This document shows, piece by piece, positions 14,464 to 53,159 of a DNA stretch of 64,000 nucleotides (position 1 is the first letter of the stretch; every line of letters starts with the position of its first letter). The notes beneath the pieces were generated by a model. The model worked only from the letters and a program-made list of their open reading frames with translations, was not told the DNA's origin and did not search any database. Position numbers and translations under genes: made by a program. This stretch comes from Microbacteriaceae bacterium. GTDB lineage: Bacteria; Actinomycetota; Actinomycetes; Actinomycetales; Microbacteriaceae. The stretch covers positions 3,185 through 67,184 of the forward strand of contig CANEXL010000001.1 in assembly GCA_947443745.1 (NCBI GenBank), in the 5' to 3' direction.

Positions 14464-15492
14464 CTACGCGCCGAAGGGCTTCTCGCCGAGTTCCGTCAGG
14501 ATGCGGTTCAGGTCAGCAATGGTGGCAAATTCTATGCTGATCAGGCCTTTTTTGGCACCCAAGGAAACTTTCACGCGAGTATCGAGACGATCACCCAAGT
14601 GTTCGGCGATCTCGTTGAGTTGCCCCATTCGACCACCCGCGACTGCCTTGGGCTTCGCTTTGGTTGGCGCCTGCTGGGCGATCGCCTCCGCCGCACGAAC
14701 GGAGAGCTCCTCGTTGACGATGCGGTCCGCAAGGCGCTGCATTGCCTCGGGGTCAACCGTGGCCAAGATTGCGCGAGCATGGCCGGCGCTGAGCACACCA
14801 GCGGCAACGCGCAGCTGCACGGCGGGGGGAAGCTTCAGCAGGCGAAGCGTGTTGCTGATCTGCGGACGCGAGCGTCCGATGCGTGCCGCCAGTTGTTCCT
14901 GCGTGATTCCAAAGTCAGCCAGCAGCTGCTGGTAGGCAGAGGCCTCTTCAAGCGGGTTCAGCTGCGAGCGGTGCAGGTTCTCCAGCAGCGCATCACGCAA
15001 CATGTCTTCATCAGCGGTGTCACGAATGATGACCGGGATGCTCTCCAGGCCGACCTCTTTCGAGGCACGCAAACGACGCTCACCCATGATGAGTTCGTAG
15101 GTGTCTTGACCGGGAATCTCGCGCACCACGATGGGTTGCAAGATCCCAATTTCACGGATGCTGTGGACCAGCTCCGCGAGGTCCTCGGCGTCGAAGTCCT
15201 TGCGTGGCTGCTGGGGATTGGGAACAATCTTGTGCGGCGACAGGAACGCCAGACGTGCTCCGGGAACGGGAACAAGCTCGGGGCCATCAGAAGAGGCTCC
15301 GCGGTTCGAGGCGTTCTGACCGCGTGAGCCAGCCACGCCGCCCGAACTCTTGCCGGAACCGGTCGCTATTGCTCCTGACTGATCGGGGAAGAAGACGTCA
15401 GCCGGTCGTGCCTTCGAGTCGTCGCCCGAAGGTTGCGAAGGAATGAGGGCGCCAATTCCGCGGCCGAGGCCAGTTCTCTTGGGGGCGGCCAT
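14464..15492 (-). CDS. parB: Chromosome partitioning protein ParB
   Basis: GLGRGIGALI, NPQQPRK, GERRLRAS, ENLHRSQL, HTH. Confidence 0.97.
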   Translation of the reverse strand: MAAPKRTGLGRGIGALIPSQPSGDDSKARPADVFFPDQSGAIATGSGKSSGGVAGSRGQNASNRGASSDGPELVPVPGARLAFLSPHKIVPNPQQPRKDFDAEDLAELVHSIREIGILQPIVVREIPGQDTYELIMGERRLRASKEVGLESIPVIIRDTADEDMLRDALLENLHRSQLNPLEEASAYQQLLADFGITQEQLAARIGRSRPQISNTLRLLKLPPAVQLRVAAGVLSAGHARAILATVDPEAMQRLADRIVNEELSVRAAEAIAQQAPTKAKPKAVAGGRMGQLNEIAEHLGDRLDTRVKVSLGAKKGLISIEFATIADLNRILTELGEKPFGA

Positions 15493-16421
15493 TATTGAGC
15501 TCCTTGCTGCACGTTGACGGCACCGCGTTGAGCAATTTCAACGGCGGCTTCAATGTAGGAAATGGCTCCGACGGAGGTGGCGTCGTAACTCACAACGCTC
15601 TGCCCATAGCTTGGCGCCTCAGAGACGCGAACGGCGCGGGGAATGACGGCCGAGAGAACAAGCTCGGGGAAGTGCGTGCGCACGTCATCGGCAACCTCGT
15701 TGGCCAGTCGGGTTCGAGCGTCAAACATCGTCAACAGAATCGTCGAGACCCGAAGATTCGGGTTCATGTTCTCGCCAATGCGCTCGATGGTTTTCAATAA
15801 GGCGCTGAGACCTTCAAGCGCATAGTACTCGCACTGAATAGGAATGAGAACTTCGCGGGCCGCCACAAACGCGTTGACGGTGAGCAGTCCCAACGACGGT
15901 GGGCAGTCGATAAACACGTAGTGGAAAGGCGTCGGCGATTCTGTGAGAAAGTTATGGATCGCGCTGCGCAAGACATACTCGCGGCGTTCAACATCCATGA
16001 GTTCAATTTCGGCGCCGGCAAGGTCGATGTTGCTCGGGGCGCAGTAGATGTCGCCGTCCTCTGGGCTTGCCTGGATGACGTCGCTCAGCTTGGCGCCTTC
16101 GATGAGAACGTCGTAGATTCCCGGGACACCCTCGTGGTGGTCGATACCCATAGCCGTAGAGGCGTTGCCCTGAGGATCGAGGTCAATGACCAAAACCCGA
16201 GCTCCGAGCCGCGCGAGGGCAGCGGCAAGGTTTACCGTCGAGGTCGTCTTGCCGACACCGCCCTTTTGGTTCGAGACTGTCAGGATGCGTGTGAAAGCGG
16301 GCAGTGGGGGTGCTTCGGCCGTCAAAATCTTGCGACGGCTCGTGAGATCTGTGAGCTCGCGCGCCAGTGGAGAGTCAAAGACCCCTGACACTCCCGTGAG
16401 GGAATCATCGGAATGTTTCAC
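15492..16421 (-). CDS. parA: Chromosome partitioning ATPase ParA
   Basis: NQKGGVGKTT, DLDPQGNAS, IDCPPSLG, QCEYYALEG. Confidence 0.97.
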   Translation of the reverse strand: MKHSDDSLTGVSGVFDSPLARELTDLTSRRKILTAEAPPLPAFTRILTVSNQKGGVGKTTSTVNLAAALARLGARVLVIDLDPQGNASTAMGIDHHEGVPGIYDVLIEGAKLSDVIQASPEDGDIYCAPSNIDLAGAEIELMDVERREYVLRSAIHNFLTESPTPFHYVFIDCPPSLGLLTVNAFVAAREVLIPIQCEYYALEGLSALLKTIERIGENMNPNLRVSTILLTMFDARTRLANEVADDVRTHFPELVLSAVIPRAVRVSEAPSYGQSVVSYDATSVGAISYIEAAVEIAQRGAVNVQQGAQ

Positions 16422-42949: not shown

Positions 42950-44173
42950 TTATTTGGCTGCCGCGGGAGTGAGGCGGGCAACGACAGCTTCGGCTTCTTC
43001 GAGGGAAGCGGTGGACACGGTGGCGATGACTTGGGCGCGTTGGAACGTGTTGAGAGCGTCGAGGCGGATTCCCGTGTCGTTATAAAGGTGTGAGAGTTTC
43101 CATGGTCCGAGGTCTTGCGGAATGCCCTGGAAGATAACGACTGTGCCGGCCGACGAGCCGACAAAGAAGCGGCTCTGCGTGTAGCGATACCCCTCAACTC
43201 CGGCGGCGAAAAGAGCCCCCAAGAGCACAATGATCGTGCCAATCAGCCAGGCGCGGCGGCGGAAGCGCCTCTTGCGGGCGATCTCACTTTCGGCAGTTGG
43301 GGGGTGCTTGTGAATGGGAACATCGCTGGTCGAAACCGGCAGAGAGCGGGAGGCCTGTCGCGAGGCGCGCACGACGTCGGCACGGGGCGACGGTTCAGCG
43401 ATGGAGATCGGTTCTGCTGCGGACCCCACGAGAGAGGAGACCTGCGCGGGTTGACCGTCGGTGACGTTGGCCACAACAACGGTGACGTTATCGGGAGCCC
43501 CACCATCGAGGCTGCCATTCATGAGGGCGAGGGCAATGTCTTCGGCGTCAGCATCCGCCGTCATCATGTCGTGAATTTCGTCACGGGTCAGCACGCCGGT
43601 CAAACCGTCGGAGCACAGCATCCAGCGATCGCCGGGTTCGGTGCCCACAATCATGGTGTCGATTTCGGGGTTCGCGTCTACGTCGCCCAGAACGCGCATG
43701 AGAACAGAACGGCGCGGGTGCACTTTGGCCTCCGCCTCGGTGATGCGGCCGCTGTCGATCAGGCGCTGCACGAACGTGTGATCGATTGTGACCTGCGAGA
43801 GTTCGCCGCCGCGCAGAAGATAGATGCGGGAGTCGCCGATGTGGGCGATGGCCACCTTGTCGCCGACCCGGATGATGGCGCTGACGGTGGTGCCCAAGCC
43901 AGCGAGCTCCGGGTGGTCGTAGACAGTATCGCCGAGCAGGTCATTGGTGGCGAGCAGGGTCTTCAGCAGAGCGCCGCGCGCCTCCTCGGGGGAATCGAAG
44001 GGGCGATCAAGTTCAAGGAGTTGGCGGATGGCCATGTGGGAGGCAACGTCACCACCGGCGTGACCACCCATTCCATCGGCGACGGCCAGAAGGTGCGTTC
44101 CGGCGTAGCCCGAGTCCTGGTTGGAGGAGCGGACCTTGCCTACATCGGAGACAGCCGCATTGTCAGCACTCAT
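42950..44173 (-). CDS. pstP: PP2C Ser/Thr phosphatase
   Basis: NQDS, VADGMGGH, GDSR, CSDGL, DNVT; TM. Confidence 0.94.
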   Translation of the reverse strand: MSADNAAVSDVGKVRSSNQDSGYAGTHLLAVADGMGGHAGGDVASHMAIRQLLELDRPFDSPEEARGALLKTLLATNDLLGDTVYDHPELAGLGTTVSAIIRVGDKVAIAHIGDSRIYLLRGGELSQVTIDHTFVQRLIDSGRITEAEAKVHPRRSVLMRVLGDVDANPEIDTMIVGTEPGDRWMLCSDGLTGVLTRDEIHDMMTADADAEDIALALMNGSLDGGAPDNVTVVVANVTDGQPAQVSSLVGSAAEPISIAEPSPRADVVRASRQASRSLPVSTSDVPIHKHPPTAESEIARKRRFRRRAWLIGTIIVLLGALFAAGVEGYRYTQSRFFVGSSAGTVVIFQGIPQDLGPWKLSHLYNDTGIRLDALNTFQRAQVIATVSTASLEEAEAVVARLTPAAAK

Positions 44174-44181
44174 GGGCCCGC

Positions 44182-44718
44182 CTACCGGCGAACCTCAAAG
44201 CTGGTTGCCCCGATCGTAATGGTGGTGTTCAGGGGAACGGGAGTGGGAGAGGTGACGCGAACGCCGGCCAGGAGCGTGCCGTTCGTGGAGTCGAGGTCGC
44301 GCAGAACCCAGGTTCCGCCGCGGGCTTCGAGCCGCGCGTGATGGGTGGAGGTGTAATCGTCTTTGATGACCAGGCTGGAGTCGGAGGACCGGCCGATGGT
44401 AATCGTGTCGCCCGAAAGCGGCAGTTCTTGCCCCGCCTTGTCGCCCGAGGTGATGACAAGTCTCAGCGGCGCAGAACCGATGGTGGCGGGAGCCGAGATC
44501 ACGTCGGTTGCGGCCGCCGGAATGCGCGGGGTTGCTGAGGTGAGGAAAGCATTCGCGGCATCGCTCCGAGTGCCCTGGGCTGCGGCGCCCTGCGGGGGAA
44601 GACGGCGAACGCGTTGGCCGAAAAGGTCGCTTCTCACGGCGTACACAATAAAGAAGACAAAGACCCACAGGGCAATCAAAAAACTGATGCGCAGGATCAG
44701 GAGGGTGAGCTCACTCAC
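44182..44718 (-). CDS. fhaB: FHA domain protein FhaB
   Basis: N-terminal TM; IGRS, S.HHARL, DLDSTNGT. Confidence 0.92.
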   Translation of the reverse strand: MSELTLLILRISFLIALWVFVFFIVYAVRSDLFGQRVRRLPPQGAAAQGTRSDAANAFLTSATPRIPAAATDVISAPATIGSAPLRLVITSGDKAGQELPLSGDTITIGRSSDSSLVIKDDYTSTHHARLEARGGTWVLRDLDSTNGTLLAGVRVTSPTPVPLNTTITIGATSFEVRR

Positions 44719-45439
44719 GCGGCCCCCAGAATCCGCCGGCATCGGGGGTGGGCGACGACGGACTCGCGTCGGCCTGCGCCTCAGGAATCATGCGGAACGT
44801 GATGCGGGTATGACCCATTTCGATGACCCCGTCTGACTCCAAGGGGGCGGAGACGAGCCGTTGCCCGTTGAGGGTTGAGCCGTTAGTGGAGCCGAGATCG
44901 TTTGCCTGGGCTCGAGTGCCATCCCACAGAACCTCGACGTGACGGCGGGAGATTCCGGAGTCGTCGACCGTGATGTCGGCCTCGGTACCGCGGCCAATAA
45001 CCGTTCGCGATTTTGTTAACGGATACCGCTTGCCAGCGATTTCAAGAACGGCCACCCACGCGATTGCTCCTCCAGCATTGGTGGAGTCAACCTGAACGAC
45101 ACCCAGGGAGAGAGAGGAGTCTGCCTGCAGTGTGATGCGGATGCCGCCGGCGAACTGAAACTTTTGAGACTGGGCGTGCTTGGTCACCAGACGCGTTAGC
45201 TCATCGATCAGGGTTGGCCCCATGGCGGACATCCGCGCGTAATCGGCGCTCGCCATGCGTACGGTGAAGATGTTGGGAACCAGAATGCGGTCACGCGAAA
45301 CCACGGCAGCCTTGGTGTCGAGCTCACGTTTCAGGGCCGACGTGATTTCAACGGGCTGGAGTCCCGAGCGAAAAGTCTTGGCAAAGGCGCCATTGACGGC
45401 GCGCTCAAGACCTTTCTCAAGATTGTCCAGAATGCCCAA
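44711..45439 (-). CDS. fhaA: DUF3662-FHA protein FhaA
   Basis: EKGLERAVNGAFAK..QPVEI; IGRG, SRRH, GSTNG; TTG start after AAAGGAGA. Confidence 0.92.
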   Translation of the reverse strand: MGILDNLEKGLERAVNGAFAKTFRSGLQPVEITSALKRELDTKAAVVSRDRILVPNIFTVRMASADYARMSAMGPTLIDELTRLVTKHAQSQKFQFAGGIRITLQADSSLSLGVVQVDSTNAGGAIAWVAVLEIAGKRYPLTKSRTVIGRGTEADITVDDSGISRRHVEVLWDGTRAQANDLGSTNGSTLNGQRLVSAPLESDGVIEMGHTRITFRMIPEAQADASPSSPTPDAGGFWGPRE

Positions 45440-45522
45440 TTGGTCTCCTTTGGGGGTGAAGCGCGGCCGTTTCCATGATACTTGCCCGATTGGGAGCATG
45501 CTGGATGCCCTCTCAGGCCACC

Positions 45523-46947
45523 CTAGCGAGCCGTTTCGAAACGAACCGAGGCATCCAGGCCGCCTTCGGAGCGCGGAGACAGCCGTGCGGTGCCTCTACT
45601 GGCGCGAGCAAGTTGGGCGACAATAGCGAGCCCCAGGCCGCTGCCGCCGATATTGGAAGAGGCACGCCAGAAGCGGTCGAAGGCTCGCGTGCACTCGTCG
45701 GGGCTCAGGCCGGGGCCCTCATCGAGAACATGCAGGGTGGTGTGGCTGCCGGCACTCACAACGCGCACCGTAATTTTGGAATGTGCTGGGCTCACCGTGA
45801 GGGCGTTGTCGACGTAGTTGTCCACGATCTGCTCGATGGCCGAGGGAGAGGCCGTAACGAACGCATCAACCGGTCCTTCATAACGGATGCGCACCGACGA
45901 CTCGGCACCGAGGGCCTGCCACTGCTCGACGCGTTCCCGCGCAATCGCCGCGACATTGAAGGTTTCCAGCGGCGCCGACGACGCTTCGGTGCGGCTCAAG
46001 AGCAGTAAGCCTTCGATGAGATTGCCGAGGCGATCGACCTCCACCTGGGCGGCAGCGAGGCGCTCGCCGGCGGCGCGCGGATCTGTTGCGAGGAGTTCGT
46101 GGGCGCGTTCCAGTCGCAATCGCAATGCCGTGAGGGGGGTACGCAACTGGTGGGAGGCGTCCGCGGCAAACATGCGTTGCTGGGTGACCAGCTCTTCAAG
46201 GCGTTCGGCCATTGTATTAAAGGAGCGCGAGAGCGATGTCAGTTCGGCCGCGCCTCGCTTCTCGTCGGCACGGGCCGTCAGGTCGCCTTCGGCGAGGAGC
46301 TCGGTTGTCGCTCGAAGACGCGTGAGCCTCTTGGCAACACTTCCGGACACCAACAAGCCCACGATGCCGGCCAGGACCACGGAGCTGAGGGCCACGACGC
46401 CGAGCCGCCAGAGTTGGCTGTTGACGGCATCGGTCACTGCTTGGTCGGGATAGGTAAGGCGAACCGCGCCCAAGACACTTTCGCCACTGAGAACGGGAAC
46501 GGTGACATACAAAAGCTCTTGGTTCAGCGTTGTCGAATAACGGTGGCCACTGCTGATGTTGCCGGCTAAGGCATCGGCAATTTCTGGCCGGCTGAGGTAG
46601 GAGGCGCCCACCACCGACTGGTCATCGTCGCTGGTGACAATGGCGGTGCCTGCCTTGTCGACAATAACGACGCGAGCCCCTCCCGCATCGCGGTACTGGC
46701 GAGCAAGGTCGCTGAGGGCCTTCGAGTCGGCAGGTGTGACCGTTGCGGTTCCTCCGACGGAAGCGGAGGCCGCTGCTGCGGCGAGCGACTCGCTACCGTG
46801 ACCGGCCAGAACGAAGGCGTCGCGTTCGAGGCCAGTGACGATGTGATCGTGCTCCGCTTGGTGCAAATAAAAGGCAAGGGGAATGTCTTGCGTGAGCAGA
46901 ACGAGAAACGTGACCGCCATCAAGGCGCCCATGAACCGCCACTTCAC
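45523..46947 (-). CDS. Sensor histidine kinase (2 TM, extracytoplasmic sensor, HAMP)
   Basis: ASHQLRTPLT H-box, NYVDNAL, DEGPG, FDRF, GSGLGL. Confidence 0.95.
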   Translation of the reverse strand: MKWRFMGALMAVTFLVLLTQDIPLAFYLHQAEHDHIVTGLERDAFVLAGHGSESLAAAAASASVGGTATVTPADSKALSDLARQYRDAGGARVVIVDKAGTAIVTSDDDQSVVGASYLSRPEIADALAGNISSGHRYSTTLNQELLYVTVPVLSGESVLGAVRLTYPDQAVTDAVNSQLWRLGVVALSSVVLAGIVGLLVSGSVAKRLTRLRATTELLAEGDLTARADEKRGAAELTSLSRSFNTMAERLEELVTQQRMFAADASHQLRTPLTALRLRLERAHELLATDPRAAGERLAAAQVEVDRLGNLIEGLLLLSRTEASSAPLETFNVAAIARERVEQWQALGAESSVRIRYEGPVDAFVTASPSAIEQIVDNYVDNALTVSPAHSKITVRVVSAGSHTTLHVLDEGPGLSPDECTRAFDRFWRASSNIGGSGLGLAIVAQLARASRGTARLSPRSEGGLDASVRFETAR

Positions 46948-47621
46948 GCAGGTTCTCCGAACCGAAAACCGACACCGCGAACCGATTCAATCCACAGCGG
47001 ATTTCCGAGCTTCTTGCGAATGGCCGCTATGTGCGCATCCAGTGTCTTGGTGGTGCCATACCAGTTGGTATCCCAGACGTCGTGGAGGATGTCGCCGCGC
47101 CGAAACACCGCCCCGGGATCGTCGCTGAGGTAAACCAGTAGTTCGAATTCTTTGGGGGTGAGGTGAACATCCGTGCCATTTAAGGAGACCCGTTGTGCCC
47201 GAACATCGAGAGTCAAGGCTCCGAAGACGCGTTGGGCAGCCGGGGCAGGTTCCACGACGGTGGAGCCCGTTCGGCGAGCGACCGCACGAATGCGGGCCAC
47301 AAGTTCGCGCATGCCGAAAGGTTTGACGACGTAATCATCCGCCCCCATCTCTAAGGCGATGACACGATCAATTTCTTCGCCCCGGGCGCTGACCACAATG
47401 ATGGGCGTTTGAGACGTGACCCGGATGGCCCGACAGACATCGGTGCCTTCCATGTCGGGCAAGCCAAGGTCGAGCAAAATCAAGTCGGGAGCCCAGGATG
47501 CGGCGGCCTCGAGTGCAGCCGTTCCCGTGGCCACTCGGTGGGCTTCGAAGCTTGCATTCTCCAGCCCGTCCACAATGCCGTCGGCAACGGAGTCATCGTC
47601 TTCCACTACCAGAACGCGCAT
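46944..47621 (-). CDS. OmpR/PhoB family response regulator
   Basis: VVEDD, LLDLGLPD, GADDYVVKPF, LTPKEFELL, VRGVGF. Confidence 0.96.
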   Translation of the reverse strand: MRVLVVEDDDSVADGIVDGLENASFEAHRVATGTAALEAAASWAPDLILLDLGLPDMEGTDVCRAIRVTSQTPIIVVSARGEEIDRVIALEMGADDYVVKPFGMRELVARIRAVARRTGSTVVEPAPAAQRVFGALTLDVRAQRVSLNGTDVHLTPKEFELLVYLSDDPGAVFRRGDILHDVWDTNWYGTTKTLDAHIAAIRKKLGNPLWIESVRGVGFRFGEPA

Positions 47622-47765: not shown

Positions 47766-48194
47766 ATGAAAATACAACTGATCACCGCCTTAGTCGTTGC
47801 TGGAGTTCTGGGAACTGCAGCGACCGCCATGGCCGTAAACGCCGATACTTTCGTCGCCCCAACCGGATTGCCTGTCGTTTCGACAGACGCACCGACCGCT
47901 GATCCTCTGGTCACGTCTGACCCTTCAGAGACATCAACTCCAGACCCATCGAGCACCCCTGACCCTTCGGTCACGCCAGTTCCCGACCCCACCGGCACAC
48001 CCAAGGTGGATGACGACGATGCGCTAGAGAACGGTGCGAGTGAGAGCTCGGACGACGCGTCAGATGATGTGTCAGAAGGCCTTGAAGTGCACGATGGTTC
48101 CACTCCCTCGACAAGCACGCCTGCTCCCAGCCAGGGAACGAGCGCACACCACACCGACTCCGATAGCGCCTCCGATAGCGACCGCTATATCTAG
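47766..48194 (+). CDS. Secreted low-complexity acidic protein, paralog 1
   Basis: MKIQLITALVVAGVLGTAATAMA-VNADT signal; P/T/S/D-rich body. Confidence 0.8.
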   Translation: MKIQLITALVVAGVLGTAATAMAVNADTFVAPTGLPVVSTDAPTADPLVTSDPSETSTPDPSSTPDPSVTPVPDPTGTPKVDDDDALENGASESSDDASDDVSEGLEVHDGSTPSTSTPAPSQGTSAHHTDSDSASDSDRYI

Positions 48195-48303: not shown

Positions 48304-48726
48304 ATGAAGTCTTCGTTAGTGACAGCCCTCATCATTGTGGGCGTGCTCGGAACCGCGACCGCGGCCATGGCCATTAATACCGACACCCTCTCCAAGATTG
48401 ATACGGGTGTCATCGGTAAGGCCAGCGAGGTGCTGGTTCCTGTTGTCACGGATGCCCAACAGCCAGGGCCATTTTCGACGACCCAGCCCGCTCCCGGAGC
48501 GAGCACAGCGCCGTCGTATTCTCCGGAATCCTCAGGCGGCAGCGGTTCTCCGACGAAAGACGTAGGAACGGCGCCCGCTCCGAGCGTTTCTGATCCCGTC
48601 GCCCCGGCCGCACCAGTTGTGGGTGGGTCTGAGGCGACAACGCACTCTAGCTCTAGCCCCTCGTCAACGCCTTCTCACAGCGGTGAATCGGAGCCGTCTT
48701 CTGGCGAGACAGGTCACGACGACTAG
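48304..48726 (+). CDS. Secreted low-complexity protein, paralog 2
   Basis: MKSSLVTALIIVGVLGTATAAMA-INTDT; S/P-rich; ends GHDD. Confidence 0.82.
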   Translation: MKSSLVTALIIVGVLGTATAAMAINTDTLSKIDTGVIGKASEVLVPVVTDAQQPGPFSTTQPAPGASTAPSYSPESSGGSGSPTKDVGTAPAPSVSDPVAPAAPVVGGSEATTHSSSSPSSTPSHSGESEPSSGETGHDD

Positions 48727-48825: not shown

Positions 48826-49317
48826 ATGAAAACACAACTCCTCTCAGTCCTCACGGTTGTGGGTGTTCTTGGAACCGCCACCGCCGCGTTGGCCGTCAAC
48901 ACAGATACGTTGACCAACCGCGAAGCCGGGGCGACAGATTCGTCGGCCCAGGCTAATGTGCTCTCGACACCTTCTGGTTCATCGTCAGCCCCGACCCCTG
49001 AGGCCATCCCGGCCGCACCCGTCACCCCGGGTTCACCTTCTTCGGAAGGCACCCCCGCCCAAAGCGCCGTTCAACAGCGCACAGACCTTACTCCTCCTTC
49101 GGCTTCGTTGGCCGTGACGGTAGACACTCCATCCCGCCCCACGACGCCACCCGTTGCGCCGGCGGTAACGCCACCCACAACCGCTCCCGTTGACGGAACA
49201 ACCGGCGGTTCGGGAGCAGCGCCGTCAACCCCTGGAACCTCCTATGGTGACGATGGCGATTCTTCGGATGGCTCTTACGAGAGCCACGACAACGAGGATG
49301 GTGGAAGCGATGACTAA
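48826..49317 (+). CDS. Secreted low-complexity protein, paralog 3, with VDGTTGGS motif
   Basis: MKTQLLSVLTVVGVLGTATAALA-VNTDT; acidic tail. Confidence 0.82.
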   Translation: MKTQLLSVLTVVGVLGTATAALAVNTDTLTNREAGATDSSAQANVLSTPSGSSSAPTPEAIPAAPVTPGSPSSEGTPAQSAVQQRTDLTPPSASLAVTVDTPSRPTTPPVAPAVTPPTTAPVDGTTGGSGAAPSTPGTSYGDDGDSSDGSYESHDNEDGGSDD

Positions 49318-49765
49318 GGGCATCCACCCCGCCGCGCGGGCACGGACTTTTGTTGGTGCCACATCGCTCTTGGCTCTTGTGGGAATTGTCACAGGCTTCC
49401 AGTTCGCGGCTAACGCCCAAGAAGCCGGCGTTGCGAGCGGTGCGGCTACGGCCAAGGGCACAGCGACAACGCAAGCCATTGATCCCGCGACGGGGAAGCC
49501 TGTCGCTCCCGTCGACGCGACCGCTCCTGTTTCTGAAGCGGTTCCCGCTCCCGCCGTTGACCCCGCAGCCCCACCCGCCGTGGCACCCGCTCCAGTTGCG
49601 GCACCTGCAGCACAACCGGCCGCGGCACAACCAGCGGCACAACCCGCTGCGGCTCCTGCCGCGGCGCCTGCTCCAGCACCCGCTCCTGCCCCGGCTCCTG
49701 TTGTCGCTCCGGCACCTGCGCCGGTAAATGGAACGACGGGTGGGTCGGGCGCCGTCAAGCCCTAA
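49310..49765 (+). CDS. Exported Pro/Ala-rich protein ending in VNGTTGGSGAVKP
   Basis: ATG overlaps the end of the upstream gene; hydrophobic N-terminal segment ending ANA; (AP)n linker. Confidence 0.8.
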   Translation: MTKGIHPAARARTFVGATSLLALVGIVTGFQFAANAQEAGVASGAATAKGTATTQAIDPATGKPVAPVDATAPVSEAVPAPAVDPAAPPAVAPAPVAAPAAQPAAAQPAAQPAAAPAAAPAPAPAPAPAPVVAPAPAPVNGTTGGSGAVKP

Positions 49766-49831: not shown

Positions 49832-50857
49832 GTGACTTCTGCTCCGCACTCTGCCACGAATCCCGCCACGAACCCTGCCACGAACCCCGCCGTTACCGGG
49901 GACAATATTTCGCGAGACGCCCTTCGCGCCGTCTTTTCTCTCACGGGAACGCAGCCGCGGGTAATTTCGTCGCGCCAGGAAATAATGGGCGGCCACGGCA
50001 CGATTACGTTAGTCGGTGCCTCCGACGCCCTGATGACGCGGGCGTGGGACGTTGTGCGCACGTGCGAAAAACGCTGGACGCGGTTCTCGCCCGACAGTGA
50101 TATTTCTCGACTCAACCTCGCCGAAGGGGCGCCCGTTGAGGTTGATCCACTCACCTTCCGCCTGATCTCCGCAATGAGGGTGGGCCACGAAATATCCTTG
50201 GGTGCTTTCGATCCCACTCTCTTAGTCGACGAGCTCAAGGCGGGTTACGGCGCCTCCGTTCTCGACCCGTCCCGTGCGACGACCCTGCCGGCCTCGGCGG
50301 TGAGCCCGGGGAACATGGCGGGCATCCGCCTGGCTGACACCACCGTCACCCTGCCGCTGGGCACCGTGCTGGACGCCGGGGGAATTGGCAAGGGACTTGC
50401 CGCCGACCTCGTGTGTGCATTCGCGCTCGCCGAGGGGGCGTGGGGCGTAATGGCGGAGATCGGGGGCGACATTGCGGTTGCGGGGAACGCTCCGGACGGA
50501 GTGGCCTGGCGACTCGGCATTGAGAACCCTTTTGACACGCAGGCGCATGCGGCGATCATCCGGTTATCTGAAGGCGCCATTGTGACGTCGAGCCAACGCA
50601 AACGTCGATTTGGCCCGGAAGGCAACGAGACCCATCACCTGATTGACCCGGCGACCCATGCCAGCGCGAAAACGAACGTGCAAACGGTGACGGTGATTGC
50701 GGCAACCGCGGCGCGAGCCGAAGCCCTCACGAAACCCGGTTTTCTTCAAGAAACGACTCGCTACCTGGAATGGTTGCCGACCGTCGGTGCGGCGGGCATG
50801 GTTATAGATGACGCGGGGGCCGAACTGGTTTCCGAGAACTGGATTCGATATCAATGA
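49832..50857 (+). CDS. apbE: FAD:protein FMN transferase (ApbE family)
   Basis: RFSPDSDISRLN, GAFDPT, LDAGGIGKGLAAD, IGGDI, WRLGIENP, TSS, HHLIDP. Confidence 0.93.
   Translation: MTSAPHSATNPATNPATNPAVTGDNISRDALRAVFSLTGTQPRVISSRQEIMGGHGTITLVGASDALMTRAWDVVRTCEKRWTRFSPDSDISRLNLAEGAPVEVDPLTFRLISAMRVGHEISLGAFDPTLLVDELKAGYGASVLDPSRATTLPASAVSPGNMAGIRLADTTVTLPLGTVLDAGGIGKGLAADLVCAFALAEGAWGVMAEIGGDIAVAGNAPDGVAWRLGIENPFDTQAHAAIIRLSEGAIVTSSQRKRRFGPEGNETHHLIDPATHASAKTNVQTVTVIAATAARAEALTKPGFLQETTRYLEWLPTVGAAGMVIDDAGAELVSENWIRYQ
49853..49891 (+). repeat. 12-bp tandem repeat x3 (ATNP)
   Basis: GCCACGAAYCCY units. Confidence 0.85.
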
Positions 50858-52434
50858 ATGATCCGCACATCTGGTGGTACATCACCCGTGCCAGCGCGCT
50901 GATTGCGTGGGCGTTGATGACGCTCTCTGCCATCTGGGGCATTCTGCTCTCCACCCGCATCATGCGCCGCATCGATAACCCCGGTTGGCTGCGCGACTTG
51001 CACTCCTACCTGGGCGGAATGACGCTCGTCATGGTGGGCCTGCACATGGGCAGCCTCATGCTCGACGGCTATCTTCGTTATACGCTCGGCGACCTTCTCG
51101 TTCCTTTCAGCAAGGACTACCGACCGTTTGCCGTGGCCCTCGGAATTCTGGCCTTTTATATATTGCTGGCCGTTCAGGGGTCCTCCCTTCTCATTGCGCG
51201 CTTGCCGCGAAAGGTGTGGAAGGTCATTCATTACGCCAGCTACGCGACGCTGATCTTGGTGTCGTTGCATGCCGGATGGACGGGCACGGATGTTGGAGCC
51301 CTCTGGTACAAAATTCTGGCGATTACCCTCATTGGCGCCGCGACGATTGCGGTCGTCGTTCGAGTGGTGACGCGCGGCCGCACGGGACGAGCTCCCACGG
51401 CGAAAGCATGGACGCACAAATCGGGCACCATTCCCAGCGTTGCTCCTGTTGCTGCTGGTGCTCCCCTTCTTCCGGCGACGCGCACGATGGTGGTTGCTTC
51501 CACATCCATGGCAGCGGATGCCGTGATGGCCATTCGGCTCGTGTCCCTCGGCGGATCGGCTGGTGGCGGGACTGGTGCTGTGGGCTCTGGGGCCTTGCCC
51601 GTCTGGTATCCCGGCGCGCACATCACGCTGTCACTGCCTAACGGGTTGCAGCGCCAGTACTCGCTGTGCGGCGACCCCGCCGAGCGCGACCACTTCGACA
51701 TCGCGGTACTGAAGACCCGTCACTCCGAGGGGGGCAGCGAGTTCATTCACGCGAACCTCACCCCGGGCATGACGCTCGAGGTCTCTGGGCCGCTCAACCA
51801 CTTCGAGCTGGAGCCCGCCTCCGACTACCTCTTTATTGCCGGCGGTATCGGCATCACGCCGATTAAGGCCATGATCGAGTCGTTGCCCGAGCGTCGCCAT
51901 TGGCGCCTCATCTATGCCGGGCGTTCGCGCACGACGATGGCGTTCTTGCCCGAGTTGCTTCAGCGCTACCCCGATCGCATTTCGGTGCATGCCGCCGATG
52001 AACAGGATGCCGAACTCGACATCGCCTCCCTCGTGGTCGACACCGATGCGCAGGTCTACTGCTGTGGCCCCGAGTCGCTGATGAGCACCACGGCGGCGCT
52101 GGTACCGGCCGCCCAAATGCATTCCGAGCGCTTCGTCGCCGTCGAGCGCACCTCCGACGTTGCCGCCCAAGCGATTGACGTCACCTGCCGCAAGAGTAAG
52201 AAGGAGTTCGTGGTCGGTGCCGACCAGAGCATTCTTGAGGCGATGGAAGCCAACGGTATTCCCGTGCTGGGCTCGTGTCGCAAGGGGGTGTGCGGAACCT
52301 GCGAGGTGCGCATCGTGGAGGGCGAGCCCGTGCACCTTGACTCGGTGATGCCCGATGACGAAAAGGATTCTTTGCGCGTGATGTACCCGTGCGTCTCGCG
52401 GGCCGTGGGCAAGGAGCTCGTGCTCGACATCTAG
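50854..52434 (+). CDS. Ferric reductase-like (heme b) TM domain fused to a PDR/VanB-type flavin/NAD(P)H/2Fe-2S reductase
   Basis: TM histidines in LHSYLG, LHMG, WKVIHYASY, LHA; RQYSLC, GGSE, AGGIGITP, YCCGP, CRKGVCGTC...C. Confidence 0.9.
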   Translation: MNDPHIWWYITRASALIAWALMTLSAIWGILLSTRIMRRIDNPGWLRDLHSYLGGMTLVMVGLHMGSLMLDGYLRYTLGDLLVPFSKDYRPFAVALGILAFYILLAVQGSSLLIARLPRKVWKVIHYASYATLILVSLHAGWTGTDVGALWYKILAITLIGAATIAVVVRVVTRGRTGRAPTAKAWTHKSGTIPSVAPVAAGAPLLPATRTMVVASTSMAADAVMAIRLVSLGGSAGGGTGAVGSGALPVWYPGAHITLSLPNGLQRQYSLCGDPAERDHFDIAVLKTRHSEGGSEFIHANLTPGMTLEVSGPLNHFELEPASDYLFIAGGIGITPIKAMIESLPERRHWRLIYAGRSRTTMAFLPELLQRYPDRISVHAADEQDAELDIASLVVDTDAQVYCCGPESLMSTTAALVPAAQMHSERFVAVERTSDVAAQAIDVTCRKSKKEFVVGADQSILEAMEANGIPVLGSCRKGVCGTCEVRIVEGEPVHLDSVMPDDEKDSLRVMYPCVSRAVGKELVLDI

Positions 52435-52490: not shown

Positions 52491-52573
52491 GCGCGAGTGG
52501 CGAAATGGCAGACGCGCCGGCTTCAGGTGCCGGTGCCCGCAAGGGCGTGGGGGTTCAAGTCCCCCCTCGCGCA
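52491..52573 (+). tRNA. tRNA-Leu(CAG)
   Basis: GCGCGAG...CTCGCGCA; anticodon loop TTCAGGT; long variable arm. Confidence 0.96.
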
Positions 52574-52581
52574 CGTATCGA

Positions 52582-52629
52582 AACCCGCTCCGACCAGGGC
52601 TTCACTGGGAGGGGCGGGTTCTCTTTTTT
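52582..52629 (+). terminator. Terminator after tRNA-Leu
   Basis: AACCCGCTCC...GGGGCGGGTT followed by CTCTTTTTT. Confidence 0.7.
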
Positions 52630-52645
52630 GCCGTCTTGATTCCAG

Positions 52646-52672
52646 TTATTGCGCTTATTGCGCTTATTGCGT
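52646..52672 (+). repeat. 9-bp tandem repeat x3 (TTATTGCGY) in a promoter
   Basis: TTATTGCGC TTATTGCGC TTATTGCGT upstream of the TACAAT -10 element. Confidence 0.85.
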
Positions 52673-52703
52673 TTACACACGCACTTGTGCTTACAATGGG
52701 GAC

Positions 52704-53159
52704 ATGTCTCTCACTGTGAACGAACATCGCCCTAACGACGATTCAGAATTGGCCGGTCGTGCTTTGGTTTCCGTACGCCGTGCTCTTGCCGAACATCACG
52801 GAGAGGATGGCCCCGTCTCCTTAATTGTGGAAGGCGAGAAGGCTCCTCTCGCTGTTCCCCGCCAGGCTATTGACTTGCTGGTGAAAATTTTGGCGAACAT
52901 TGCCGCAGGCCAGAGCGTTAGCATCGTCCCTCAGCACGCAGAGCTCACGACGCAACAAGCAGCCGAAATTTTAAACGTCTCTCGCCCATTCCTAGTCAAA
53001 CTCCTCGACGAGGGAAAGATTGAGTTCAAGCGTGTCGGCACTCATCGCCGCATTCGAGCGGATTCATTGCTTCAATACAAACACGACGATGACGCGAGGG
53101 GCCGGACAGAAGTAGCCGAGTTGATACAACTAGGCCAGGAAATGGGCCTCGCGCGGTGA
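52704..53159 (+). CDS. Excisionase-like HTH_17 DNA-binding protein (putative antitoxin)
   Basis: ELTTQQAAEILNVSRPFLVKLLDEGKI....GTHRRI. Confidence 0.88.
   Translation: MSLTVNEHRPNDDSELAGRALVSVRRALAEHHGEDGPVSLIVEGEKAPLAVPRQAIDLLVKILANIAAGQSVSIVPQHAELTTQQAAEILNVSRPFLVKLLDEGKIEFKRVGTHRRIRADSLLQYKHDDDARGRTEVAELIQLGQEMGLAR

Follow-up and report, generated by a model that had tools for sequence, protein, structure and literature searches.

The window analyzed here, a 64,000-nucleotide stretch of contig CANEXL010000001.1 from a Microbacteriaceae bacterium (assembly GCA_947443745.1), contains a gene (50854–52434, + strand) encoding a single protein chain in which a membrane domain of the ferric reductase domain (FRD) type, predicted to bind two haems, is joined by a linker to a reductase of the phthalate dioxygenase reductase (PDR) type, as judged from the open reading frame, Pfam matches, alignments, AlphaFold models and Foldseek searches. 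This fusion protein is probably a self-sufficient transmembrane electron exporter of the FRD (NOX/FRE/MsrQ-like) superfamily that operates within a flavin-linked gene module. An earlier interpretation made from the DNA letters alone (the sequence-only reading) had proposed a quinone-independent conduit carrying electrons from the cytosol to the cell surface. The conduit is well supported computationally and fits everything computed here. The analyses show the domain composition, the motifs with their conservation, the similarity of fold, the predicted topology and the linkage of the genes, and from these we infer the binding of haem, flavin and iron-sulfur cofactors, the direction and order of electron transfer, the flavinylation of a neighboring tail peptide and the terminal acceptor.

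A four-histidine membrane domain fused to a PDR-type reductase

The reading frame of the fusion gene is open throughout and yields a product of 526 amino acids plus a stop codon. Its ATG lies within the string tcaATGAatg, and the start of the gene shares four bases (ATGA) with the end of the upstream apbE, whose stop codon is TGA, an arrangement of translational coupling. As the N-terminus MNDPHIWWY is common to orthologues, the annotated start is sound.

The membrane domain (residues 1–175; 50854–51378, +) was delineated from hydropathy, the positive-inside rule, AlphaFold2 and VIA-align results, and histidine conservation. Hydropathy shows four clear segments (approximately residues 12–34, 52–70, 88–118 and 147–175) and a weaker one (approximately 119–142) that bears H126 and H139, and five helices are present at residues 4–34, 43–70, 91–112, 119–142 and 150–178 in both AlphaFold models, one of the full-length protein and one of the transmembrane domain only. 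The domain-only model was built from 85 sequences and has a predicted local distance difference test (pLDDT) score of 93.9 and a predicted template modeling (pTM) score of 0.87. The putative haem ligands lie on helices 2 and 4, with H50 (codon 51001–51003) and H64 (51043–51045) 14 residues apart and H126 (51229–51231) and H139 (51268–51270) 13 residues apart, all on the + strand. These four residues are invariant in 33 full-length fused homologues with identities down to 29%. An exhaustive search with residues 1–190 alone returned 3,219 clusters (50% identity) at E ≤ 1e-3, and among the 150 nearest cluster representatives H50, H64, H126 and H139 are retained in 149/149, 150/150, 142/142 and 131/135 sequences, respectively; H5 is variable in the same set. 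The four-histidine signature is a family constant, far beyond chance, and together with the five helices it bears out the sequence-only proposal of an N-terminal transmembrane domain with four putative haem-ligand histidines, a domain that would bind two b-type haems.

Two histidine pairs with a spacing of 14 and 13, placed on two transmembrane helices one helix apart, correspond to the FRD bis-haem “long form”. In the parts of Zhang et al. 2013 (PLoS One, PMC3591440) drawn on here, bacterial FRD proteins are classed as short or long forms, the long ones keep all four histidines, and the numbering of the NOX2 histidines (H101/H115 and H209/H222) gives the same spacing of 14 and 13. When the profile of the transmembrane family was compared with PDB sequences, SpNOX was the best match and the only one touched, with both histidine pairs in register at a marginal E of 0.054. 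In VIA-align the model of the transmembrane domain also matched SpNOX best, with a Z of 13.3, a value near 13 being borderline by itself for helical bundles, and a root-mean-square deviation of 2.7 Å over 144 residues (model 12–174 against chain 32–180), the aligned part of SpNOX being its helices TM2–TM6. STEAP4 (Z 13.2), STEAP1, csNOX5 (Z 12.9), NOX5, DUOX1 and NOX2 followed. Foldseek searches with the domain-only model returned the same families at the top with E just 0.04–0.5, and nothing at E ≤ 0.001. As the bis-haem helical proteins Dcytb and cytochrome b561 score equally in VIA-align, the fold alone fails to separate these families. The NOX/STEAP-type membrane fold, recovered with this borderline Z, is supportive rather than decisive for FRD/NOX/STEAP membership, and the aligned histidine register gives the specificity.

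Loops rich in lysine and arginine at residues 35–47, 116–123 and 170–189 mark the predicted cytoplasmic face under the positive-inside rule. The topology is therefore predicted to be N-out with the C-terminal reductase inside, with H50 and H126 at the inner haem site and H64 and H139 at the outer one; the short N-terminus is predicted to lie outside because helix 1 of NOX is absent. A reductase outside the cell would have spoken against the sequence-only reading, and no such placement was seen in silico. Two acidic residues, D71 (51064–51066) and D146 (51289–51291), are predicted to sit on the outer face beside the outer haem and are almost invariant over the whole transmembrane family, being kept in 147/150 and 116/128 of its nearest representatives; a cationic acceptor or the tail peptide might make contact with them.

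The membrane domain is followed by a disordered linker of variable length (residues 176–206; 51379–51471, +). In the full-length AlphaFold model (pLDDT 84.5, pTM 0.57) residues 176–205 have a pLDDT below 50, and the length of this segment differs among the aligned orthologues, in agreement with the flexible linker that had been suggested from the sequence.

The remainder of the chain has the domain order of a PDR class IA reductase: flavin, NAD, then a C-terminal plant-type [2Fe-2S] domain. The flavin-binding beta-barrel (residues ~207–320; 51472–51813, +) carries RQYS at 267–270, fitting the RxYS pattern of the class, and SEGGS at 291–295, and its Pfam FAD_binding_6 match is weak. The NAD(P)H-binding domain (residues ~321–435; 51814–52158, +) matches NAD_binding_1 at residues 327–413 and contains GGIGITP at 330–336, an instance of GGxGxxP in which G331, G333 and T335 are invariant across the 33-sequence alignment. 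The ferredoxin domain (residues 436–526; 52159–52431, +) matches Fer2 at 446–517 (E 4e-14), and its four cysteines, C475 (52276–52278), C480 (52291–52293), C483 (52300–52302) and C513 (52390–52392), all on the + strand, form a Cx4Cx2Cx29C pattern that is likewise invariant. PDB sequence searches with residues ~198–526 returned CYP116B46 (6kbh, E 5.9e-61; 6laa, E 3.3e-55), PDR itself (2pia, E 9.2e-44) and 7ylr (E 2.3e-43), and the match to the dehydrogenase domain of SpNOX reached merely ~E 1e-6. Foldseek gave 6kbh at E 4e-34 and 2pia at E 3e-32 (template modeling score 0.79 on the target). Because the sequence and Foldseek matches agree on CYP116B46 and 2pia, the reductase is PDR-type, and the earlier description of a complete PDR/VanB-like reductase with a C-terminal 2Fe-2S domain stands. 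By analogy with these closest relatives, PDR (2pia) and CYP116B, its flavin would be flavin mononucleotide (FMN). An 11-residue glycine-rich insertion, SAGGGTGAVGS (residues ~233–243; ~51550–51582), lies in a loop of the flavin-binding barrel and is missing from 20/20 aligned orthologues, including one at 90% identity, so that it is specific to the window.

The module shares 32–39% identity over ~325 residues with 2pia and the CYP116B reductase (6kbh, 6laa), with the same domain order and cofactor motifs. In self-sufficient CYP116B P450s, a solved precedent, a PDR module also shares one chain with the haem domain to which it supplies electrons. The difference lies in the partner. PDR-type reductases of this class are normally soluble donors to a nearby or fused Rieske oxygenase or P450, whereas here a transmembrane bis-haem b domain precedes the module in the same chain, and no oxygenase gene (Rieske or P450) was found among the open reading frames scanned within ~7 kb on either side, as the sequence-only reading had stated.

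The architecture as such is not new, and the earlier premise of novelty did not survive comparison with the literature and databases. In the available part of Zhang et al. 2013, Fig. 3 includes a bacterial FRD form (model M8) with Ferredoxin/Fer2 as an added electron-transfer agent. Like the fusion protein, M8 joins a ferric-reductase membrane domain with four haem histidines to a ferredoxin-type 2Fe-2S domain; it is catalogued there without function or gene context, and its domain order and FNR subtype are unconfirmed in the portion consulted. MsrQ-like clusters with PF00175 (Méheust et al. 2021), the names given to relatives in databases and the CYP116B enzymes are further precedents. The fusion is already catalogued and will not surprise specialists in the superfamily; the clade to which it belongs is uncharacterized.

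A conserved gene module with ApbE and a candidate flavin carrier

The fusion gene is the last member of a conserved actinobacterial module. Directly upstream lies apbE (49832–50857, +; Pfam ApbE E 5e-47), encoding a FAD:protein FMN transferase (FAD, flavin adenine dinucleotide) without an N-terminal signal peptide; on reading the sequence, the N-terminus is polar with no hydrophobic stretch, and the relatives read likewise have no signal peptide. Upstream of apbE is a gene for a 151-residue protein (49310–49765, +) with an N-terminal HPAxxAR motif and one hydrophobic helix, a Pro/Ala-rich linker and a C-terminal ...PVNGTTGGSGAVKP tail, which is a candidate natural carrier of a flavin tag. It is preceded by three genes for exported proteins: a Pro/Ser/Thr-rich protein with an internal PVDGTTGGSGA motif and an acidic/His tail (48826–49317, +), a paralogous protein with an acidic/His tail (48304–48726, +) and a paralogous protein with an acidic tail (47766–48194, +). 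Divergent from these are an OmpR-type response regulator (46944–47621, −) and a sensor histidine kinase with Cache/HAMP/HisKA/HATPase domains (45523–46947, −), both assigned from Pfam matches and conservation. Pfam scans of the cluster detected no FMN_bind protein.

This arrangement is conserved well beyond the window. The apbE gene lies directly upstream of the fusion gene in 14/14 Microbacteriaceae genomes that carry the fusion, and it adjoins a haem-domain-only homologue in 7/8 loci fetched from other Actinomycetota families. In the 14 Microbacteriaceae loci, as in the distant loci inspected, the gene immediately upstream of apbE encodes a protein of ~110–180 residues with a short basic N-terminus (HPAxxAR), one hydrophobic helix and a low-complexity Pro/Ala-rich body. 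Its extreme C-terminus reads ...[D/N]G[T/S]TGGS(G) in most of the 14 loci; variants elsewhere include GTSSGSN, STGSSGH, SGTTAGS, TSGSR, TKSRAS and TTKAS, and the distant families have looser Ser/Thr-rich tails. One to three exported paralogues with acidic/His-rich tails precede this protein. Most Microbacteriaceae loci have a divergently transcribed OmpR-type two-component system beside the module, as do the 7 distant loci in which apbE and the haem gene are paired, and it is kept in distant Actinomycetota families even where the haem protein has no fused reductase. A search of NCBIfam gave no equivalog for this two-component system, and a scan for promoters and terminators performed no better than on shuffled sequence.

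The tails resemble an engineered ApbE substrate. The Flavin-tag GVDGLSGATLTS is flavinylated by ApbE as a short unstructured peptide at protein C-termini (PMC9400968). Since PVDGTTGGSGA and PVNGTTGGSGA in the window match its core, V-[D/N]-G-x-[S/T]-G-[A/G]-[T/S], it is chemically plausible that the Pro/Ala-rich tail may be a natural, peptide-only substrate of ApbE. In the part of Huang et al. 2024 consulted, MsrQ is modeled with an anchored flavinylated protein and peptide-only substrates are not described. Two variants of the arrangement were considered and rejected. A single read-through protein joining the tail protein to ApbE, which would anchor ApbE, is compatible with the shared frame in the window, but the frames differ in two related loci (L018 and L019). 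The SxGGS flavin-phosphate loop of the reductase, which resembles TTGGS, was rejected as a conserved target of ApbE because apbE is also paired with haem-domain-only homologues.

The cluster is related to the MsrQ-like flavinylation systems described by Méheust et al. 2021 (eLife, PMC8238504), comprising 1,797 clusters, mostly from Actinobacteria, of which 1,437 have a C-terminal PF00175 domain; the authors proposed NAD(P)H as the cytosolic donor and iron reduction for some of the systems. As in those systems, an FRD bis-haem protein is encoded beside apbE, a C-terminal PF00175 domain is fused to it, the donor would be NAD(P)H and the distribution is mainly actinobacterial. The spacing that they used, a PF01794-type gene within five genes of apbE or an FMN_bind gene, is found here, as the fusion gene and apbE are adjacent and overlap by 4 nucleotides. 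Their filter required a signal peptide or lipobox on the ApbE, FMN_bind, DUF2271 or DUF3570 protein. In the window neither a signal peptide nor a lipobox is apparent in the ApbE sequence, so the cluster may fail that filter, and a Pro/Ala-rich anchored protein with a short TGGS tail takes the place of FMN_bind. The reductase differs as well, being PDR-type with an added 2Fe-2S domain; the term “2Fe-2S” occurs 0 times in that paper.

A second, canonical MsrQ-like locus resides on another contig of the same genome (L043:3852-6661) and encodes a Ferric_reduct+FAD_binding_8+NAD_binding_1 protein, a membrane-anchored FMN_bind protein containing a GGAT site, and an ApbE. The haem protein of this locus (P0289, 460 amino acids) has six helices and no Fer2 domain; it is collinear with the fusion protein from H50 to F427 and ends at HAERFEF, where the fusion protein runs on into Fer2. 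The ApbE of the canonical locus (L043:5825-6661; about 14824–15660 of its contig) also has neither signal peptide nor lipobox. Signal-less ApbE is general to the flavinylation loci of this organism, and because a canonical FMN_bind locus has an equally signal-less ApbE, the missing signal peptide in the window is by itself no argument for a cytoplasmic target. The canonical locus is bordered by genes for an AraC regulator, a P-type ATPase and an MFS transporter.

Two further features adjoin the module in the window. Just downstream of the fusion gene, at 52497–53159, is a gene for an HTH_17/excisionase-family DNA-binding protein; four related loci (L018, L019, L021 and L024) also show short matches to this protein downstream of their fusion genes, so that it may be part of the module. 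A conserved actinobacterial FhaA/FHA-domain/PP2C phosphatase cluster (42950–45499, −) sits directly upstream of the two-component system, and the position of FhaA is kept in three of these loci (L018, L019 and L021).

Distribution and origin of the fusion

More than 100 database relatives of the fusion protein, with 54–88% identity over its full length, come from Microbacteriaceae, including the genera Cryobacterium, Lacisediminihabitans, Aurantimicrobium, Salinibacterium and Rhodoglobus; JGI labels them [quoted passage not shown]. When the family was sampled evenly, a full-length fused homologue was found in 14/121 genomes, and the remaining matches were soluble PDR-like proteins. A search of 400 Actinomycetota genomes yielded no further fused form at E ≤ 1e-40, which is weak evidence as only three candidates were scored per genome; none of the conclusions drawn here depends on the unpublished genome G208. 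The same search detected haem-domain-only homologues with 36–46% identity in at least 8 other families. Among the 150 nearest cluster representatives of the transmembrane domain, 10 have an FNR and/or Fer2 part and 140 are transmembrane-only by BLASTP, some of them perhaps being fragments.

The feeder appears to have been attached more than once, because the same transmembrane subfamily bears a different module in Blastococcus. The Blastococcus protein WP_135130782.1 (44% identity in the transmembrane domain) is fused to a generic FNR-type FAD_binding_6/NAD_binding_1/Fer2 module that gives no BLASTP alignment with the module in the window and whose best PDB matches are GcoB and BenC, not PDR. 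In a quick tree of the transmembrane domain, made by a short search and with an outgroup on a very long branch, the PDR-fused forms group together, nested among transmembrane-only forms, and the Blastococcus-type fusions fall elsewhere. The tree is consistent with what seem to be at least two attachments of a flavin/NAD/2Fe-2S feeder, and it provides a lead towards a single origin of the PDR fusion. A metagenome protein (P0130, 524 amino acids) carries an ApbE fragment N-terminal to the same transmembrane domain, which represents either a gene fusion or a mis-called overlap.

The proposed electron path and its alternatives

In NADPH oxidases of the NOX family, the inner haem is reduced directly by FAD, whose domain is rigidly docked beneath the membrane domain. 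The fusion protein would work differently. Its cytoplasmic PDR-type module would take hydride from NAD(P)H onto the flavin (FMN by analogy), which would hand single electrons to the C-terminal [2Fe-2S] cluster. The module would then swing on the ~30-residue linker to deliver electrons to the cytoplasm-side haem b (His50, His126), from which they would cross to the outer haem b (His64, His139) and reach an acceptor on the outer face with no need for a quinone. Given a long, disordered linker and a PDR-like module, docking and electron exit would fall to the one-electron 2Fe-2S domain, the part that it plays towards oxygenases and the P450 haem of CYP116B. Since the fusion gene is the last member of a conserved module with a tail protein and ApbE, the proximal acceptor would most likely be the ApbE-flavinylated tail peptide, and the final acceptor a metal ion (Fe3+ or Cu2+) or another extracellular oxidant.

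A more specific version of this path can be put forward only tentatively. The fusion protein might be the power supply of an undescribed form of flavin-based extracellular electron transfer, in which FMN is carried on the [D/N]GTTGGS C-terminal tag of a disordered tether and no FMN_bind domain is involved. ApbE, lacking a signal peptide, would add FMN to the tag on the membrane-anchored Pro/Ala-rich tether, and the tethered flavin, reduced by the outer haem, would ferry its electrons across the actinobacterial wall; the metal ions receiving them would be bound by the acidic/His-tailed exported proteins encoded in the same module. The dedicated two-component system would control the whole module, and the PDR-type 2Fe-2S feeder, an addition made in Microbacteriaceae, would free the chain from the quinone pool.

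Several observations weigh against the proposed exporter and its flavin-linked setting. The pTM of 0.57 for the full-length model makes the placement of the reductase relative to the membrane domain uncertain, and with it which cofactor, 2Fe-2S cluster or flavin, is turned towards the inner haem. Pfam gave no match at E ≤ 0.01 on the membrane domain of the window, so the FRD assignment rests on orthologues, the family profile and the fold; PF01794 is carried by orthologues at 60–88% identity, and relatives of the transmembrane domain score 28–39 bits, the cut-off being 28. In the tail, TGGS differs from the canonical flavinylation motif S/T-G-A-T/S, and although the presumed flavinylated tail should be extracytoplasmic, ApbE is signal-less. 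No metal transporter is present in the scanned neighborhood, and our literature search found no biochemical study of the PDR-fused clade.

The fusion protein could instead be a bacterial NADPH oxidase like SpNOX, in which the outer haem reduces O2 to superoxide and ApbE and the tail genes are functionally separate. The membrane domain finds its best structural match in SpNOX, which is also the one PDB sequence that the family profile touches; the whole model aligns with SpNOX over ~460 columns (Foldseek), and any low-potential outer haem b can leak electrons to O2. With SpNOX, NOX5 and NOX2 the fusion protein shares the membrane fold, the histidine spacing, the collinear order of membrane, flavin and NAD(P)H domains and the predicted direction from cytoplasm to outside. 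It differs from them in lacking helix 1, which leaves five helices rather than six and an N-terminus predicted outside, and in its linker, which is long and disordered rather than a rigid dock. Its dehydrogenase is PDR-type and probably FMN-binding, not of the FAD_binding_8/NAD_binding_6 kind that ends in a C-terminal aromatic residue (the NAD_binding_6 match is below the cut-off), and the chain extends into an extra C-terminal Fer2 domain where the NOX-like paralogue P0289 ends. The strict coupling with apbE and the tail-peptide gene across distant families, a further difference from these oxidases, points to a dedicated protein partner. An oxidase is therefore unlikely, and O2 is probably not the intended acceptor.

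A second alternative places the target of ApbE in the cytoplasm, on the cytoplasmic face of the haem protein or on the reductase, making the protein a covalent flavocytochrome with the tails as acceptors or scaffolds. The absence of a signal peptide from ApbE in the window and in all relatives inspected would fit such a target, as would the metagenome protein that joins an ApbE fragment to the same transmembrane domain. In the portions of the literature consulted, MsrQ of E. coli is presented as a flavocytochrome of the membrane that has a binding site for FMN (PMC12525009), and non-covalent flavoproteins are reported to have evolved into ApbE substrates (Huang et al. 2024). The PDR module cannot be the conserved target, as the pairing of apbE with the haem gene persists without a fused reductase, and no canonical flavinylation motif is conserved in the cytoplasmic loops. 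In the canonical locus of the same genome, an anchored, presumably exported FMN_bind protein is paired with a signal-less ApbE. Taken together, a cytoplasmic target seems improbable.

E. coli MsrQ (YedZ) with its partner Fre offers a further comparison, being an FRD-superfamily member that relays reducing power from the cytoplasm through the membrane to a partner outside the cytoplasm; it differs in being a two-component system with a separate flavin reductase, as described in the parts of Juillan-Binard et al. 2017 and PMC12525009 drawn on here. That the fusion protein is an MsrQ-type donor to an extracytoplasmic molybdoenzyme such as an MsrP-like methionine sulfoxide reductase, with its built-in reductase replacing Fre or quinol, is very unlikely and was rejected, for although MsrQ is a characterized bacterial FRD protein and databases name the fusion protein after YedZ, no Oxidored_molyb (PF00174) gene, and so no MsrP, was found in the 88%-complete genome by a search whose control recovered the family in 9/14 reference genomes, no molybdoenzyme gene is present in the loci inspected, and YedZ-type short forms keep three of the four histidines in the available part of Zhang et al. 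2013, whereas the family of the fusion protein keeps four.

With these alternatives weighed, a self-sufficient electron exporter remains the reading that we prefer for the fusion protein. The one-electron 2Fe-2S relay placed between its flavin and its haems would be a natural experiment in gating a two-electron donor into a one-electron haem wire. The bacterial FRD long forms are prokaryotic cousins of the NADPH oxidases and of the plant and fungal ferric reductases, and to our knowledge almost none of them has been studied. More interesting than the fusion itself are its surroundings: the peptide-sized putative flavin carriers, the signal-less ApbE, the dedicated two-component system and the apparently repeated acquisition of a 2Fe-2S feeder. 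The module may reveal a way in which small-genome, Gram-positive Actinobacteria reduce substrates outside the cell with no multihaem cytochromes.

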